Part shown: piece by piece, positions 1-31,960 of the stretch
Numbering within the stretch: position 1 is the first letter of the stretch
Layout of the letters: every line of letters begins with the position of its first letter
Origin: Polyangiaceae bacterium
GTDB lineage: Bacteria > Myxococcota_A > Polyangia > Polyangiales > Polyangiaceae
Assembly (NCBI GenBank): GCA_046351455.1
Contig: JAXLYM010000003.1
Location: 152,364-216,363 of the forward strand
Length of the DNA stretch: 64,000 bases
Reading direction: 5' to 3'
Notes under the pieces: generated by a model
The model's database searches: none
What the model saw: the letters and a program-made list of their open reading frames with translations, nothing else
Told to the model about the DNA's origin: nothing
Program-made: the position numbers and the translations under genes

Positions 1-93
1 ATTCGTGGCATCAGTGATATTATTGGCTGGAAGCGCGACGATGCGTGGACACTCTATGCGTGTGAGACGGCGGCCCAATTCGCAGCTACAATC

Positions 94-1833
94 GTGTCGA
101 CCGGCCTTCTCTGTTGGAGTTCCCGGCAGCCAATCGGTGAGCCAACTCGCTCAGCCCAGGGTGCCTCCCCACCGGAAGCAGGCTCGTCCGTCGGCACGGC
201 CGCACGACAGGTTGAACGTGCGCGCCCCATGTCGAAACATGAGGAACCGAACTCGACCCCTCGACATCCAATTATTCTTAACCCTTTTGGCGAGGGCGAC
301 GTTGCTGGGGAGCTCGACGCTCTTTCTGACCTGTATTTTGTCGATACAGACTTTCCGCGAAAAGCTTTGAGTGACAAGATAAATCTGATCATCGGCCGGC
401 GCGGAGCTGGCAAGACTGCGCTTGCCCACTGGCTCGGGCTGCCGAGGGACGCGACATCAAGATACTACAACATCTATGTAGACGTCAGCAGTTTGGCTCT
501 ATTTGCGCCGACGGTGACAGGCATTGCTGAACGGCTGAGGCAGGAGCATCACGCTACGGAAATCCTTGCTTCAGTGTGGCGGGTAGCCCTCCTACATGCA
601 CTTATGGTTGAGACGCTCAAGGACAAGCACCTCACCAATCGCGCTGGTTCTCTTGACATGGAGCATCATCTAATCAACAAATCGATTCCGAGAACTCAGT
701 CGGCATCACAGGTCGTGCTGCGAGTATTTCAAATCATAGCGAGCGCTCTTGTTCCGAGCATTTCAACTACGGCCAGTCTCGTAACCAGCGTGCAGAGTCT
801 TGAGAATTCACCAGGGTTCGTCGCGTGGCGAAGGGCCCTTCCAGAATACCTCAAAGCAAGCAAACAGCGCGCGGTCATCGTCATAGACACGCTTGAGGAG
901 TATCGGATCAAGGATCATGCTGTTCAGCTATTCATGGCGTCATTGTCCCACGCCGTCAGCGAACTCTCAAAAGCCAGCGGGGCAGAGGGTCTGGAGATCA
1001 AGCTGTTTGTTCCGGCGGAGGTCGCACAGTCTCTCGAGGACACAGCTATCCTGAACATCGGAAAGACTTTTGACCGCGCTCTTTTCATGCATTGGCGAAG
1101 AAAAGACCTTCTTCGACTGATGTGCTGGCGTCTGATGTATCATCTCACAACGAGATTCCCAATGTATTGTCCACCGGAGCTCAAGCGCTACCGCGAACTA
1201 GACTGGTCAGACTATTCGGCAATTGCCAAGCATGTCTGGGACAAGTTCTTTCCAGTAGGCAGCCGCGATCGACATACGATCAGTTCATTTGCACACATTT
1301 CTAGATTTACCCAGCTGCGTCCACGTCAGTTCGTATTGCTGTGTAACGCGATCGCTCAACGTGCTCACGAAAACCGGACATTCCCCAAGATCCAATGGCA
1401 AGATCTCGGCAACGGAATCGCCGATGTTGTTGATACACTTGCAAAGGAGGTGCTTAGCTCCTTCAGGAGTCTATACCCTGACGCTGATAGGATCGTCAGT
1501 ACTCTTGCCACCGCGCGAGACCCACAAGGCCTGTATGTTGGTCTGACCTATGGAAACGTTGACTCGCTCGCTTCGCAGGCCAAAGGCCTGTGTACTCGTG
1601 AAACATTCTGGCGCCTGCTCTTGGAGACAGGTGTGCTTGGCGTCGTGACCGGGGACACAGAACTTTACACCGAGGCTCGGTTTGAATACATCGAGCGTCA
1701 ACCATTGATTCCGGGCATGAATGACAGATTTGTTGTACATCCAATGTTCTACGGTCGGCTAGGAATCAAGCCGCCACGAGAGGCGAAGTGGGTGTTCCCC
1801 ATTGGGCCGGAAGATCTCAGCGTTGACTATTGA
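94..1833 (+). CDS. P-loop NTPase of unclear family (Walker A IIGRRGAGKT, Walker B VIVIDTLEE) with ~350 aa C-terminal region of unknown function; encoded in low-GC island; may be 5'-truncated by window edge
   Basis: Continuous ORF. Frame 1 is open from nt 1 (translation IRGISDIIGWKRDDAW... upstream of the first ATG). GC drops to ~50% from ~230 to ~1860 against a ~70% background. Internal ATG at 229 coincides with the GC drop. Walker A and B motifs were read directly from the translation. Confidence 0.6.
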   Translation: MSTGLLCWSSRQPIGEPTRSAQGASPPEAGSSVGTAARQVERARPMSKHEEPNSTPRHPIILNPFGEGDVAGELDALSDLYFVDTDFPRKALSDKINLIIGRRGAGKTALAHWLGLPRDATSRYYNIYVDVSSLALFAPTVTGIAERLRQEHHATEILASVWRVALLHALMVETLKDKHLTNRAGSLDMEHHLINKSIPRTQSASQVVLRVFQIIASALVPSISTTASLVTSVQSLENSPGFVAWRRALPEYLKASKQRAVIVIDTLEEYRIKDHAVQLFMASLSHAVSELSKASGAEGLEIKLFVPAEVAQSLEDTAILNIGKTFDRALFMHWRRKDLLRLMCWRLMYHLTTRFPMYCPPELKRYRELDWSDYSAIAKHVWDKFFPVGSRDRHTISSFAHISRFTQLRPRQFVLLCNAIAQRAHENRTFPKIQWQDLGNGIADVVDTLAKEVLSSFRSLYPDADRIVSTLATARDPQGLYVGLTYGNVDSLASQAKGLCTRETFWRLLLETGVLGVVTGDTELYTEARFEYIERQPLIPGMNDRFVVHPMFYGRLGIKPPREAKWVFPIGPEDLSVDY

Positions 1834-2025
1834 TCAAGGCTTAAAAAAACACTCGATTGCCTACGTTTCGCCGACTCTCCCGCAACCGAAGATCCTGCAG
1901 GTCAGGAACTCGTTCGCGAGATTCGACGGTTGCTCGGTGGCGCCACTGCCGAGGCTTCGACCTCGGAGCAAACCAACAAAGGTGCTTGAGGAACGGCTCC
2001 GACGTCGCGCCAGCGAGGGTCCAGC

Positions 2026-2304
2026 TTATCGAACGTCCTTCCACGCCGGACGCACGCCGAGGATGTCAATCGACTGTTCTGTGATCATGAAGGTGATTAC
2101 GAGATTCGTCCCTGCCACTGGACGGCTCCAGATGGTCTCGAAGGGTGTCCGCAATGCCTGTTCATCCTCCGGGCCAGGGGCAGGAACACGCTCGTTTGCA
2201 AGGGCTCGCAGTACCCGCCTGACGGCTGCTTCCTCTGACGATCCTGGAGGCGCGTGAACTCGGCGCGTCGCAAAGAATATCGGCTTCAGCCGCAGGAATC
2301 GCAC
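2026..2304 (-). pseudogene. possible frameshifted 3' continuation of the small ORF at 2286..2627
   Basis: The 2026..2304 ORF overlaps the stop of the 2286..2627 ORF in another frame and translates to protein-like sequence (EEAAVRRVLRALANERVPAPGPEDEQALRTPFETIW). It lies next to the low-GC island boundary. Confidence 0.2.
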
Positions 2305-2627
2305 GCGTTCGCCTGTTCCTCAAGAATACCTTCAGCCTCGGCCGCAGAATAACCGAGCTCGGTCAGGTCCTCACGCGTAGCACAACCCTGGAGATATCGG
2401 CACTCCGCCTCCGACATGAGCCCAGCCTGGACGCACTCTTCCACCGTTCGCCCAGGCTCCGACATCGACGCTGCGTACTGCTCAGCGCTCATCCCGAGCA
2501 GCCTCAGATGCTCGGGATCCTCCCGCCCCAGCTTCTCTGCATACTGGCGCAGTAAGTCGACGTGACGGGGATCCTTGGATCCCATGCCGATCAAATCGCC
2601 GTGGTCCAAAGAGTACGCAGTCGCCAT
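2286..2627 (-). CDS. hypothetical small protein (start taken at MATAYSLDHGDL)
   Basis: ORF co-directional with and downstream of the Ser/Thr kinase gene. An internal ATG gives a 74-bp spacer from the preceding ORF. No recognisable motif. Confidence 0.35.
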   Translation of the reverse strand: MATAYSLDHGDLIGMGSKDPRHVDLLRQYAEKLGREDPEHLRLLGMSAEQYAASMSEPGRTVEECVQAGLMSEAECRYLQGCATREDLTELGYSAAEAEGILEEQANACDSCG

Positions 2628-2700
2628 GCAATGACCAATAGCACAGGATGTGCCGGAAAGCGAGCCGCCCACGGGCCCTCCAGAACACGTTCCGATGGGC

Positions 2701-3078
2701 TCAGTCCGGTGACGTCGACACCTTCGAAAGCGGCAACACCTCGTCCAGCGCACGCTTCACGTCCGGCCGATGGAGCACCTCCACGGCGACGATCCGGTCC
2801 TCAACGACATCGAGCACGATGAAGCCAGTCGCCGCGCCGAGGCGAAGATTGAAGTGGCCCTCTCCATAAGCCCCCTTCGGGCGCGGCGCCGTGTAGAAAT
2901 GCGCGCAGTCCGGATCGCCGCAACGACAACGGTCCACCACAGGCAGATCCGCTATCCGGGGCGCGAGATCCGGGCGCTCGGAGGCCGCTAAAAGCTCGGT
3001 CAGCTCGCGCGAAAACGCAGGGAACACCGAACGAATCGTCTGGACCGGACGGGCCTCGCTCACGGTACCTCCAAGCAC
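2701..3078 (-). CDS. hypothetical protein, 125 aa, Cys-rich patch CRCGDPDCAH
   Basis: ORF starting 25 bp downstream of the kinase stop on the same strand. GC3-rich codon usage typical of the host. Confidence 0.45.
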   Translation of the reverse strand: MLGGTVSEARPVQTIRSVFPAFSRELTELLAASERPDLAPRIADLPVVDRCRCGDPDCAHFYTAPRPKGAYGEGHFNLRLGAATGFIVLDVVEDRIVAVEVLHRPDVKRALDEVLPLSKVSTSPD

Positions 3079-3103
3079 GTGCTCGTGCCCCCCTCGACGC
3101 GTT

Positions 3104-6475
<3,372 letters not shown>

Positions 6476-27938: not shown

Positions 27939-29171
27939 TCATTTCACTTTGCAGCCGGCGCCGTTCGTGAGGCCCTTCTTCTTCGCGAGATCGTCAATCT
28001 CGATCAGGGCGTCTTTCAAGCGCGGATCCGCCGGATCGATCGCGTGCACCTTCACGTAGGCGTCGCACGCGTCGGTGAATTTCTCCTGCGCGCCGTACGC
28101 GTTGCCGAGGTTGATCCAGGCGCTCACGAGCTTCGGGTTCTTCTGCGTGGCCTGCTTGTAGTAGTCGATGGCCTTCGCGAGATCGCCGCGGAGCGACCAG
28201 GCATATCCGAGGTTGCTCTTGTAACTGGCGTTCTCCGGATCCGCCGACACGGCCTTTTCCAGGTGCGGTGACGCCTTCACCGGATCGCCGAGCCCGAGCA
28301 GCGCCGTGCCGAGCCCGTTCTCCGCGCGCGCGTCCCCGGGGCTGATCCGCAAGGCCTTCTCGAACACGGGCGCCGCGTCCCCCGGTTTGCCGGCCGCGAG
28401 GAGCACCGTCCCCAGGTTGAGCTGACGCCCGAAATCGCCGCCCGCGAGCTGCACCGATTTCTGGAACGACGCGAGCGCCCGCGCCACATCGCCCGTCGCG
28501 AGCATCGCCACGCCGAGAGCCGAGTGCGCCTCCGCGTCGTTCGGAGAGAGCTCGGTCCCTTTCTTCGCGGCCGCCACCGCCTCTTCGGCCTTCCCGAGCA
28601 CGAGGAGCGCCTTCGCGAGCTCCGTCTGCACAGGCCCGTACGCCGCGTCGAGCTTCGCGGCCTTCGCGAGATCCGCGGCCGCCGCCTTCGCGACCTTGTC
28701 GTCCGGCGCGCTCCCGAACCCCTCCGGCACGTTGCCTTTCCCGAGCCGCGCCCGCGCGAGCCCCACCGCCGGCGCCGGGTCCTTCGGAGCGAGCCTCTGC
28801 GCCTTCAGATAAGCCTTCTCGGCGCCCGCATAATCGGCCTTCGCGAACGCCGTGTCCCCTTCGACCAGGGCCTTGTCCGCGGGCGTATCCACGCCACGCG
28901 CCACGTGCGGAGGCGGGCTCGGCGGCGGAATCGGCTCCGGCGCAGGCTCCGCGACCGGCGCGCTCGTCCCCGTGGCGGTCGGAACAGGCACCGTCGTCAT
29001 CGAAGCCGTCCCGCTCGTCGAGGCCGTCGCCACCGTCGCCGTGGGCTGCGGCGCGTTCATCGGCTGCGGCCCCTGATCGGGATTCGGGCCGCACCCGGTC
29101 GCGACGGTCAGCGCGACGACGCCACCTATCCACGAACCAAGGACCATGACGGAGCGGACCTGCGGGGCCAT
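27939..29171 (-). CDS. TPR-repeat lipoprotein
   Basis: Lipobox LTVATGC, Pro/Thr linker, then 8 or more TPR-like repeats (AxxxYxxA patterns). Confidence 0.8.
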   Translation of the reverse strand: MAPQVRSVMVLGSWIGGVVALTVATGCGPNPDQGPQPMNAPQPTATVATASTSGTASMTTVPVPTATGTSAPVAEPAPEPIPPPSPPPHVARGVDTPADKALVEGDTAFAKADYAGAEKAYLKAQRLAPKDPAPAVGLARARLGKGNVPEGFGSAPDDKVAKAAAADLAKAAKLDAAYGPVQTELAKALLVLGKAEEAVAAAKKGTELSPNDAEAHSALGVAMLATGDVARALASFQKSVQLAGGDFGRQLNLGTVLLAAGKPGDAAPVFEKALRISPGDARAENGLGTALLGLGDPVKASPHLEKAVSADPENASYKSNLGYAWSLRGDLAKAIDYYKQATQKNPKLVSAWINLGNAYGAQEKFTDACDAYVKVHAIDPADPRLKDALIEIDDLAKKKGLTNGAGCKVK

Positions 29172-29267
29172 AAATATATCTTTTTCCTGAGAGGATTCGG
29201 GCAGGCGGGGGAGTGATACGAGGGGGCGGAGCCCCCTTGTAAGATCACGTCTGTCTGCCTGTGCTCG

Positions 29268-30824
29268 TCAGACCTTGTAGGCGACCGTGGAGTGATCCTT
29301 GCCGTCGAACCGCAGGAGCACGCTCTTTCCGTCCACCTTCGTGGAGACGAGCACAGGCCGCTTCCAGAGCCGCACGAGGGATGCGAGCGTCTCCCGCGCG
29401 TAATCGCTCTTGAGCTCCATGCCGTTCCACTTGTGCTCGAGGAGCAGCTCCCCACGATTGCCGTAGTTCGCGTCGATCACCTGGATCAACGGATCGCCGA
29501 AGTTCGTGAGCTGGAAGAGGAGCTTCTCCTTCACCTCCTTGAACTCGCGGCTCTCGATCTCGTACCGGTCATTGCGGCCCGAGTACCCGAACGTGTACAT
29601 CTTGGCGTCGAACACGAAGTCCGGCGTGAGGAATTCGTCGAGGAACGTGACGTCGTTGTAGAGCGACCGCACCTGGAAGATCTTCTGCCGCCCGAGGCCG
29701 AGTCGAAGGTCCCAGTTGCGGCGAGCGTCCATGTCCGTGCACTCGTCCCAGTCCTTGCCGAACTGGCCTTTGTCCCACCGTTCTTCGATGTAGCGGAACA
29801 GCTCCACGCCGAGCTTGTACGGGTTCAATCGGCCGGGCGCCGTCGCCATGACTCCCGCGTTGTTCTCCGCGTAATCGATGATCTCCGAGGCGTCGAGCAC
29901 CTTCTCGGTCATCATCTTCGAGTGCCAGTAGGCCGCCCACCCCTCGTTCATGATCTTCGTCTGGCGCTGAGGCAGGTAGTAATAAGCCTCGTCGCGGATG
30001 ATTTCGAGGATGTCGCGCTCCCACCGCTCGAGCGGCGCGTGGTCGAGCAGGAATTTGAGGATGTCGCGCTCCGGACGCTCGGGCACCTTGCGCTCGGGGC
30101 GCTGCTTTTCGAGCATCTTCTTCTTCTGCGCCTCGACGTACTCCTCGGGGTTGATGAAGGCGTCCATGTACTCCTTCGCCTGGAGCTTGGGCACCTCGAG
30201 GGGCTTGTCGTCGTCCTCGACAGGGGGCTTCACCCGGCCGGAGAAAGGGGACCACGGGTCGATGAGGTTCTCCAGCGAGAGGCAATGATCGATGAACTGC
30301 TCGATCTTCGCGATGCCGTGCCGCTCCACGTGGCGCGCGACGCGGGCCCCGTGATTGGCCATCTTGTCGATCCAGCGGCGATCCGGCTCGTACGGCTCCT
30401 GCTTCTTGATGGGATCCGTGACGGGTCCTTGCCTGTCGAGGTCCGTCGACTTGAAGCAGAAGTTGTTCTTGAAGAAGTCCACGTGACCGAACACGTGCGC
30501 CATCACGAGCTTCTGGTCGGTCAGCGAGTTCCCTTCGAGCAGGTACGCGTACGAAGGGTTGTTGTTGATGACCATCTCGTAGATCTTCGAGAGGCCGTAT
30601 TCATAGCTCTTCGAGAGCTGCTCGTACTCCATCCCGAAGCGCCAGTGCGGATACCGCGTCGGGAAGCCGCCGTACGCGGCGATCTCGTTCATCTGGTCGT
30701 ACGTCAGGATCTCGAAGATGACCGGGAACAGATCCAGGCCATAGTCGCGCGCGATCTTCTCGATGCGCTCCTGCTGCTCGCGCAGGTACCGGGGAAGCGT
30801 GGTGTTGAGTGCGAACTTGCTCAT
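29268..30824 (-). CDS. spoVR: SpoVR family protein
   Basis: Strong family match, including [15 protein letters not shown]. The start at [10 protein letters not shown] gives 518 aa. Confidence 0.9.
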
Positions 30825-30831
30825 GGCCCGC

Positions 30832-31941
30832 TCACTTCCCCTTCCCGAGGAAGTCCTTGATGCTCCCCACGATCGCGTCCTTGTCGCGGATCTCGCTCGT
30901 GACGACCCGCTCGTCCTTGTTGAAGTGCTCGCGCAGATCCTTGATGAACTGGCCGGAGCCATACGGGCTCTCGACCTGGCCGTAGGCGAACATGTTCACG
31001 CGTGGGAGGAGGCTCTTCTTGAGGATGTCGACGCAAGACAGGGTGTCATCCATCGACCAGTTGTCGCCGTCGGAGAAGTGGAATGGATAGATGTTCCACT
31101 CGGCCGCGGGGTAGCTGTCGTCGATGATCTGCGCGCACAATTTATAGGCGCTGGAGATCATCGTGCCGCCCGACTCCCGCGTGTGGAAGAAGGTGTCGCG
31201 GTCGACCTCGCGCGCGACGGCGTCGTGGATGATGAAGCGCGACTCCAGCCCTTTGTATTGCTTGGTCAGCCACGCGTCGATCCAGAAGCTCTCGATGCGC
31301 ACGATCTCCTTCTGCTCGTCCCCCATCGAGCCGGAGACATCCATCATGTAGATGATGACCGCGTTCGTCACGGGCTCGTTGATGGTCTTCCACGAGCGGT
31401 AACGCTTGTCCTCCCGGATGGGGACGACCACGGGCTGGTCCGGCGCGAACGTGCCGCTCGAGATCATGCGCTTCAGCGCCTCGCGGTACGTGCGCTTGAA
31501 ATGGCGCAGCGACTCGGGGCCGACGCGGCGGATGCCCGAGTACCGATCGTGCGCGCTGGAGACGGTGTTCTTGCCCTTGTCCTGGATGTCGGGCAGCTCC
31601 AGCTCCTCGCCGAGGATCGCCGCCAGCTCGTCGAGCGTGACGTCCACTTCGAGGTTGTGCTCGCCTTGATCCTGGCCGGCCTGGCCCTTCCCCGGCTGCT
31701 TCTCTTCGCCGCCGTTCAAAGGGTCGCCGGGCTTGCCGTCACCCTGGCCGACGCCCCCCTTCTGCTTGTCGCCGAAGCGGAAGCGCGGGATGTCGATCTG
31801 CGGGATGGGGATCGACACGCGATCCTTTCCTTGCCGGCCGATCAGCTCTCCCTGGGAGATGTACTTGCGCAGGTTCTGGCGGATCTTCCCCCGCACGATC
31901 TGTCGGAACCGCCCGTGGTCCTGGTCGATCTTCAGTGACAC
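30832..31941 (-). CDS. yeaH: YeaH/YhbH family protein (DUF444, vWA-like)
   Basis: Motifs [18 protein letters not shown] and [14 protein letters not shown] match the YeaH family. 7 bp upstream of spoVR. Confidence 0.9.
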
Positions 31942-31960
31942 CGCGCGGAGGATAGCAGGC

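Follow-up and report, generated by a model that had tools for sequence, protein, structure and literature searches.

What does the gene of low GC content at the left edge of an otherwise GC-rich myxobacterial contig encode, and what could its product do for the cell? The stretch in question (called the window below, at its whole length of 64,000 nucleotides, or 64 kb) comes from a Polyangiaceae bacterium (GenBank assembly GCA_046351455.1, contig JAXLYM010000003.1, positions 152,364 to 216,363 of the forward strand), and it begins inside the gene U0441_06040. A first-pass annotation, made from the sequence alone, had described here a low-GC island with a solitary P-loop NTPase, possibly the 3' part of a larger, horizontally acquired gene of defence or abortive infection. 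The complete product combines a nucleosidase of the PNP family with a P-loop ATPase of the Sll1717 family, and it is probably an immune or conflict protein.

The full-length gene was found by a search of 5.8 billion proteins, in which the 853-aa protein MFO0587074.1 (P0001 below; Polyangiaceae metagenome-assembled genome (MAG), 626-kb contig) was 100% identical to the query. Frame 1 of the window is free of stops from nt 1 up to the TGA at 1831–1833. The translation of nt 1–1830 (610 aa) equals residues 244–853 of MFO0587074.1 exactly, which places the gene start 729 nt before the first nucleotide of the window. The expectations that the frame is open back to the first nucleotide, that the window holds just the 3' part of a longer gene with several domains, and that an N-terminal domain lies upstream were thus borne out, the missing domain being a PNP-family nucleosidase.

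The HMM (hidden Markov model) search of the product that the first-pass annotation had proposed was carried out with Pfam, NCBIfam and PADLOC, and gave matches to PNP_UDP_1, to the Sll1717 ATPase and to a CBASS PN-superfamily effector. PNP_UDP_1 occupies aa ~7–275 and is followed by the linker and the ATPase module (coordinates of all features in Table 1). Judging by its sequence, the product is one intact polypeptide, consisting of a nucleosidase with complete catalytic residues, a linker, and an ATPase with complete Walker A and Walker B motifs. Among the matches examined this is the sole example of a fusion of PNP with the Sll1717 ATPase.

The base composition of the gene is foreign. Nucleotides 229–1833 contain 52.6% GC, with 55.9% GC at third codon positions (GC3), against 68.3% GC in the entire window. 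Among all 1600-bp segments of the 64 kb (mean 0.685, standard deviation 0.035) this stretch is the GC minimum, lying ~4.5 standard deviations under the mean. GC3 is ~56% in the ATPase versus about 87–91% in host genes, one of which, the kinase gene at 3104–6475 on the minus strand, has 70% GC and a GC3 of 90.7%. The AT-rich first 40 nt (50% GC) and the GC-rich linker sequence at 41–228 (65.4% GC) are likewise as first described. The gene is a horizontal acquisition, as had been proposed. The claim that the island extends from ~230 to 1860 holds for its low GC content and fails for its sharp end: the right-hand border is gradual, since GC3 rises stepwise through three small open reading frames (ORFs), from 0.56 in the ATPase to 0.62 (ORF 2026–2304), 0.70 (ORF 2286–2627), 0.75 (ORF 2701–3078) and 0.91 in the kinase gene. 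No tRNA genes were found in the 64-kb window, promoter and terminator scans of it gave results at chance level, and a plasmid search returned no DNA match.

The nucleosidase domain was recognized by Pfam PF01048 at aa 53–271 of P0001 (49.6 bits, E = 4e-13, cut-off 25.1). Its top profile is PADLOC PDLC00759, CBASS 'Effector, PN-superfamily' (506 positions; 80 bits, E = 3e-23), which is taken to be the model of Cap17-type effectors because of its length, description and effector class, and not by a PADLOC label. Residues E17, G87-I88-x-G90 (GIAGG), E224-M225-E226, R245, S248-D249, R255 and W259 are invariant in 26 clade members. In the alignment with solved MTA/SAH nucleosidases (MTANs), 'EME' and 'RGISD' fall on active-site motifs, and 'irgisdiig' is aligned with 'iralsdiag'. 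A PDB search by the PNP profile returned MTANs only and no Cap17-type structure.

That the best solved relatives are MTA/SAH nucleosidases and that the catalytic residues are conserved would suit a housekeeping enzyme of nucleoside salvage or MTA/SAH recycling, regulated by the attached ATPase. Such a role is very improbable. The housekeeping MtnN equivalogs are missed by a wide distance (NF004079, 53.5 bits vs 169; TIGR01704, 26.8 vs 73.8) and the Cap17-type effector model scores higher. A GC3 of 56% in a genome with a GC3 of ~90% is unlike that of a core gene. The PNP domains nearest to this one are associated with NACHT, TIR and kinase domains, and the closest relatives of the ATPase carry an EAD domain in place of PNP. 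Instead of the stop codon just before nt 1 and the housekeeping family that the first-pass annotation had named as contrary evidence, a frame that continues upstream and a domain that fails the MtnN equivalog were found.

The PNP domain has its closest relatives outside the salvage enzymes. The best full-length match (65–68% identical) is a standalone PNP encoded 60 nt upstream of a STAND gene with a NACHT domain and HEAT repeats (L083:381-4237, on a contig of 55% GC). This pair looks like a two-gene form of the effector-plus-NTPase design. Another relative of this domain is 81% identical over the N-terminal half and has an unrelated C-terminus, and many relatives of 35–40% identity are fused to TIR (TIR_2), kinase, Clp_N or WD40 domains.

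On HMM scores and context, and not on a tree, the domain may belong to the Cap17-like clade. PNP domains of this clade, as described by Rousset et al. (bioRxiv 10.1101/2023.01.24.525353), cleave ATP/dATP, are toxic when expressed alone and occur N-terminally in proteins of the Avs/NLR type. Depletion of ATP/dATP and toxicity of their own are documented for the PNP domains tested, namely those of Cap17, DtcC and eukaryotic NLR- or Death-fused proteins. The catalytic Asp mutated in Cap17 (D472) and in DtcC (D353) corresponds to Asp249 of P0001 by the MTAN alignment. The PNP effectors are homologous and differ in their control: Cap17 is activated by a cyclic-oligonucleotide sensor domain and DtcC by a phosphorylated receiver domain, whereas the window protein carries a fused AAA+ ATPase.

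The ATPase module matches NCBIfam NF047389 ('P-loop ATPase, Sll1717 family') with 154.7 bits (cut-off 75, E = 4e-45). The match covers profile positions 1–451 of 454, and the earlier statement that the C-terminal ~350 aa resemble nothing recognizable has to be withdrawn. P0001–P0004, P0013 and P0031 likewise pass this model end to end (153–155 bits for P0001). The window protein retains 25 of the 25 invariant columns of the family and 36 near-invariant ones, and with them the family motifs PFG, GRRGxGK, DT(L)E, W-R-x-K-D-L, T-Q-x-R-P-R-Q, EAxFEY and HPMF. Both Walker motifs read from the sequence at first pass are real and stand on invariant columns. The Walker B pattern hhhhDxhEE seems to resemble the NACHT-type DGLDE, and the lid motifs W-R-x-K-D-L and T-Q-L-R-P-R-Q are candidate arginine-finger and sensor-2 elements.

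An AlphaFold2 model of the ATPase, based on an alignment of 28 sequences, is of high confidence (pLDDT 87, pTM 0.87). It shows a P-loop core of five strands, with a helical insertion of ~120 aa separating strand 2 from the strand of Walker B. A helical lid with both invariant motifs, further helices, and a C-terminal winged-helix-like and beta-rich region follow. This last region (H441-450, H457-466, E470-476, E480-484, E500-503 and E521-524 of the model) holds the conserved motifs EAxFEY and HPMF and could be a sensor or ligand-binding surface. As modelled, the ATPase is an AAA+ protein of the ORC/Cdc6-STAND type, continued by helical and winged-helix domains. Its fold matches are generic to the ORC/Cdc6 clade, with TM-scores of ~0.3 and no close solved relative, and a PDB sequence search by the ATPase profile gave generic P-loop matches only. 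Archaeal Orc1/Cdc6, the 'archaeal ATPase' SSO1545/PAB2304 and BrxC of BREX show 10–14% identity at TM-scores of the same order. They have neither the PFG motif nor the helical insertion nor an effector fusion, and they belong to other biology (replication initiation, BREX).

Alternatively, the gene may be a relic of a transferred element, now decaying or silent, or may code for a mobile-element ATPase that resembles the target-selection proteins TnsC/MuB and has no immune role. Little probability is given to either. All 853 codons form one uninterrupted ORF, the invariant residues of both domains are all kept, no transposase is conserved beside 80 loci encoding family members, and the fold matches are generic to the ORC/Cdc6 clade.

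The N-terminal slot of the family is exchangeable among relatives. In the nearest homologues of the window protein the place of the PNP domain is taken by EAD5 (P0002, 74% identical) or EAD1 (P0003, 58% identical). P0162 has an N-terminal CHAT protease, and P0191 and P0193 carry EAD1 at the N- or C-terminus. The E-values of the EAD matches are 2e-14 for EAD5 and 9e-9, 1.5e-15 and 1e-17 for EAD1. Other members have a MarR-like wHTH or a second ATPase module in tandem. Because the PNP fusion, its two nearest relatives (EAD1, EAD5) and the CHAT member agree in this respect, the N-terminus is regarded as an effector/adaptor slot. The NTPase is not solitary, as had been supposed, since its own effector domain is attached.

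Tandem ATPase modules, in fused or adjacent genes, were observed in P0166, P0169 and P0174 and at three of 80 loci; the second module matches Pfam PF24389 ('ORC-CDC6-like') over the N-terminal 58 positions. A Blastocatellia subgroup (P0013, P0016, P0018; L013, L014, L022, L024, L035) has an N-terminal extension of ~60 aa with a zinc-ribbon-like CPxC...FC motif (YCPKCQQRYS...FCRTDGS).

Exchange of an effector for an EAD adaptor between related proteins is known from NTP-dependent conflict systems as the 'EAD principle', and a PNPase recurs among the effectors of these systems (PMC7159879, PMC8195603; Kaur, Burroughs, Iyer and Aravind 2020, 2021). EAD1 and EAD5 are described in PMC7159879 as recruiting effectors. 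The same swapping at the N-terminus is seen in the Sll1717 family, with a PNPase in the window protein, EAD5 in P0002, EAD1 in P0003 and P0191, and CHAT in P0162, and the phyletic bias (Cyanobacteria, Chloroflexota, Myxococcota) is common to both. The core NTPase differs from the MoxR-vWA, iSTAND and GTPase cores of the EAD systems described in the accessible portions of these papers.

With the same architecture, the PNP domain could instead generate a signal, so that a free base or a ribose-phosphate derivative would be a second messenger for a separate effector encoded elsewhere. Many close PNP homologues are fused to TIR, that is, to domains able to make signalling molecules, which favours this alternative. 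It is nevertheless unlikely, because the PNP domains tested so far deplete ATP/dATP and are toxic alone. In relatives, moreover, the PNP slot is filled by a CHAT protease or by EAD1/EAD5, adaptors described as recruiting effectors, and a candidate receptor gene is absent from the visible neighbourhood.

The linker (~50 aa) between the two domains is predicted to be disordered or flexible, the AlphaFold pLDDT being <50 over the first 11 residues after Met320. Met320 (ATG, nt 229–231) lies inside the linker, and P0002 and P0003 have comparable linkers. A Met 14–19 aa before the PFG motif is kept in PNP, EAD5 and EAD1 fusions alike. Since standalone members of the family begin there, Met320 is likely the vestigial start codon of an ancestral standalone ATPase.

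A standalone ATPase translated from ATG 229 was considered as the main product and rejected, because no stop closes the frame upstream and the deposited protein of 853 aa agrees with it exactly. Met320 could permit an ATPase isoform by internal initiation, and a minor isoform of this kind is possible; ATG 229 has no evident Shine-Dalgarno-like sequence before it.

A link to experimentally validated immunity is offered by DS-41 ('AAA2', WP_033812887.1), a single gene for a 502-aa protein, which protected E. coli against several Bas phages in the DefensePredictor study (PMC13092281). Like standalone Sll1717 members, DS-41 is an ATPase of ~500 aa. It shares with them the collinear motifs PF, G(R/Q)RGAGK(T/S)A, hhhhDxL(E/D)E, WxxxxL and PRxxxxLC; 'NPF' stands for PFG, and 'isWnndeL' and 'PRELIKLC' stand for the lid motifs. 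NCBIfam NF053860 (DS41_1) gives a weak N-terminal match, far below the cut-off, in all tested members of the family, with E-values between 2e-9 and 2.5e-5. For the window protein it amounts to 23.4 bits (cut-off 370) over profile positions 5–58 only.

The reverse comparison was made with the first 399 residues of DS-41, taken from the supplement of PMC13092281. The Sll1717 HMM matches them in three collinear segments (13.4 bits, E = 1e-6 as a single comparison), which hold PF and Walker A, the Walker B DxL(D/E)E, WxxxxL and PRxxxxLC. A distant homology of the Sll1717 family to DS-41 is likely but not proven on these sequence comparisons. DS-41 has no PNP domain, and its relationship to the window protein is very remote.

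The preferred reading is that the gene codes for an immune or conflict device made of one protein, in which a PNP effector related to Cap17 and DtcC, a linker and the Sll1717 AAA+ ATPase bring about abortive infection in the manner of Avs/NLR proteins. We consider this reading probable, at a degree that leaves ample room for error. The ATPase module would be an NTP-dependent switch whose lid and C-terminal winged-helix/beta region sense an invader-derived cue. ATP-dependent oligomerisation would then gather the N-terminal PNP domains. Enzymes of the PNP family (MTAN, PNP) act as obligate oligomers, whose active sites lie where subunits meet, and for this reason proximity of the PNP domains would switch the enzyme on. 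The activated nucleosidase would deplete purine nucleotides, most likely ATP/dATP, and the loss of nucleotides would arrest the infected cell, which amounts to abortive infection. The trigger, the oligomerisation, the substrate and the defence phenotype are those that we infer for such a device; ATP as the specific substrate is proposed with less confidence than the general model.

Among the closest known systems are the Avs/NLR-like STAND proteins with an N-terminal PNP (Rousset et al. 2023; Gao et al.; Lee et al. 2026), whose N-terminal effector is swapped among relatives, as in the family of the window protein. The defence or abortive-infection role suggested at first pass is accordingly kept as the best-supported reading, on the strength of the Cap17-type effector score, the EAD1/EAD5/CHAT swaps and the remote kinship with DS-41, while the anti-phage activity of the protein itself is presumed.

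Several observations weigh against this assignment. Sequence models of STAND proteins are missed by the window protein (AAA_16, 21.4 bits vs 32.6; NPHP3_N, 16.4 vs 24.8), and it has no match to NACHT, NB-ARC or nSTAND. Avs/NLR proteins have a large repeat sensor (TPR, WD40 or HEAT, usually 400 aa or more), whereas after the lid of the window protein there are only ~190 aa of helices and a small beta region without repeats. As both STAND model membership and the repeat sensor fail, the protein is called Avs-like in its working and not a member of that group. Alignment of the Sll1717 profile with DS-41 by hhalign covers 48 N-terminal columns only, at 45% probability, so that the homology is weak. 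Most Sll1717 members have neither an effector domain nor a conserved partner gene. Within 10 kb of P0003 (L081) the called genes include none for a cognate EAD1 effector, and the contig of P0002 is too short to judge an EAD partner. PADLOC matches among 149 immediate neighbours of the 80 loci are scattered (mad2 four times, mad3 twice, AriA twice, and singletons); counted without a background rate, they do not establish enrichment in defence islands. No relatives were found in IMG/VR viral contigs, and a full-text literature search for 'Sll1717' retrieved no paper.

The family itself is sizeable. Searched exhaustively with the profile, 1.84 billion cluster representatives yielded 4,145 proteins below E = 1e-3, of which 676 lie below 1e-30. 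Most of the best 150 are 510–535 aa long and start ~10–20 residues before PFG. Relatives are encoded in 187 of 185,579 species genomes (GTDB representatives, the source MAG not being among them; the best match is 32% identical), and the locus-level counts refer to 80 loci out of these 187 relatives. Cyanobacteria account for 33 of the 80 loci, Chloroflexota for 18 and Acidobacteriota for 17, and a few belong to Planctomycetota, Myxococcota and other phyla. ORF clustering within 5 kb of the 80 loci revealed no neighbour gene conserved across phyla; synteny is lineage-specific only, inside one cyanobacterial clade. The distribution of the family is sporadic and results from horizontal spread.

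The concentration of the family in filamentous or multicellular lineages suits another role, namely control of self/non-self recognition or developmental cell death (kin conflict, programmed lysis) in a multicellular myxobacterium by the same logic of switch and nucleosidase. Enrichment of EAD-type systems in multicellular prokaryotes, reported in PMC7159879, and the weak defence-island context point the same way. A core developmental role is disfavoured because the composition is foreign and the PNP-ATPase fusion is a database singleton, and the nearest validated relative, DS-41, is anti-phage in the unicellular E. coli. Cell-death control is therefore judged improbable.

If immune function is extended from the window protein to its relatives, the Sll1717 family (~4,100 clusters at 50% identity; mostly filamentous Cyanobacteria, Chloroflexota, Acidobacteriota and Myxococcota) could represent unrecognised compact 'mini-NLR' immune ATPases, homologues of DS-41 that sense invaders without a repeat sensor, perhaps via nucleic acid binding by the Orc/Cdc6-like winged helix. 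The series of PNP, EAD1, EAD5 and CHAT fusions would then be a natural experiment on output logic, the PNP fusion being the most directly testable. This extension is tentative, a possibility that we would not yet call probable. If the preferred reading of the window protein is right, an unstudied family of mostly bare ATPases of ~520 aa gains a functional handle and is tied to a recently validated anti-phage gene of E. coli. The partners of ATP nucleosidases would extend past CBASS, Detocs, pAgo and classical Avs to an Orc/Cdc6-like switch without a repeat sensor, and the question would arise how so small a protein recognises infection. Fusions of an effector with an NTPase switch are already well established; the principle is not new and nothing is overturned. 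The locus offers a concrete and testable way into a family of ~4,000 clusters, which it may also connect with DS-41.

Table 1. Features of U0441_06040 and of the adjacent small genes in the window (nt, window numbering; aa, numbering of P0001).
Feature	Coordinates (nt)	Strand	Evidence
U0441_06040, 3' part (codons 244-853 and stop)	1..1833	+	exact suffix of P0001 from aa 244
PNP_UDP_1 domain, C-terminal end (MTA/SAH-nucleosidase-like)	1..126	+	Pfam, PADLOC, MTAN alignment, invariant columns
Motif R-G-I-S-D-I-x-G, catalytic Asp249 at nt 16-18	within 1..126	+	MTAN alignment
Clade-specific R255 (nt 34-36) and W259 (nt 46-48)	within 1..126	+	invariant columns
Low-complexity, GC-richer linker, aa 286-337	127..282	+	outside all family profiles
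Sll1717-family P-loop ATPase module, aa 339-827	286..1752	+	NCBIfam NF047389
PFG motif (P338, F339, G340), family-specific, N-terminal	283..291	+	invariant or near-invariant columns
Walker A, GRRGAGKT (K381 of the full protein)	394..417	+	invariant columns
Walker B strand and acidic residues, VIVIDTLEE (D539, E542, E543)	874..900	+	D539 invariant, T540 nearly; strand beta3 of model
Lid: W-R-x-K-D-L (W608 at nt 1093-1095) and T-Q-L-R-P-R-Q (nt 1309-1329)	1093..1329	+	invariant or near-invariant
C-terminal winged-helix-like and beta-rich region, aa 760-853	1549..1830	+	secondary structure, pLDDT ~90
ORF B, 92 aa, overlaps ORF A by 19 nt	2026..2304	-	conserved; not part of the system
ORF A, U0441_06045, 128 aa by NCBI; conserved core of 113 aa (2286-2627)	2286..2672	-	P0298, 100% identical; not part of the system

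The PNP-ATPase gene is convergent with three small ORFs of the minus strand, two of which are ORF A and ORF B. The first-pass annotation had seen in 2026–2627 a disrupted host ORF. A frameshifted gene was rejected here, as the region holds two intact, conserved, overlapping genes. ORF A has ten homologues of 65–81% identity, most of them exactly 113 aa long. ORF B is found with 81.5% identity over 92/92 aa and with the same 19-nt overlap on three contigs (L090-L092) in unrelated surroundings, and a truncated remnant of it is present in two Polyangiaceae MAGs (L088/L089). Since one homologue of ORF A (P0306) carries the Unstab_antitox domain (PF09720), the two genes may form a toxin-antitoxin-like pair. 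By eye, ORF B has a C-terminus resembling RelE/ParE, but no profile matches it. Neither gene stands beside the ATPase homologues in L081 or L082.

The third ORF (2701–3078, 125 aa, GC3 0.75) has a Cys-rich motif, CRCGDPDCAHFY. Pfam, NCBIfam and PADLOC gave no match to it, and the related loci examined contain no homologue. The 1,123-aa product of the kinase gene at 3104–6475 has a Ser/Thr kinase domain at aa 41–306 only, and its other ~800 aa are without a Pfam match. Past 3.1 kb the window consists of typical high-GC Polyangia sequence with Ser/Thr kinases.

The Logan contig L087 (SRR26348423), a read-level assembly, is identical to window positions 2045–3750 and breaks off at nt 2045, where the low-GC gene has its edge. 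A gap in coverage or strain variation at the island border could explain the break, which taken alone is uninformative on the border or on polymorphism. A second, milder GC dip (about 61%) at ~29100–31950 contains ORFs of 564 aa and 369 aa, which by eye only are SpoVR-like and YeaH/YhbH (DUF444)-like, and this dip appears ordinary.

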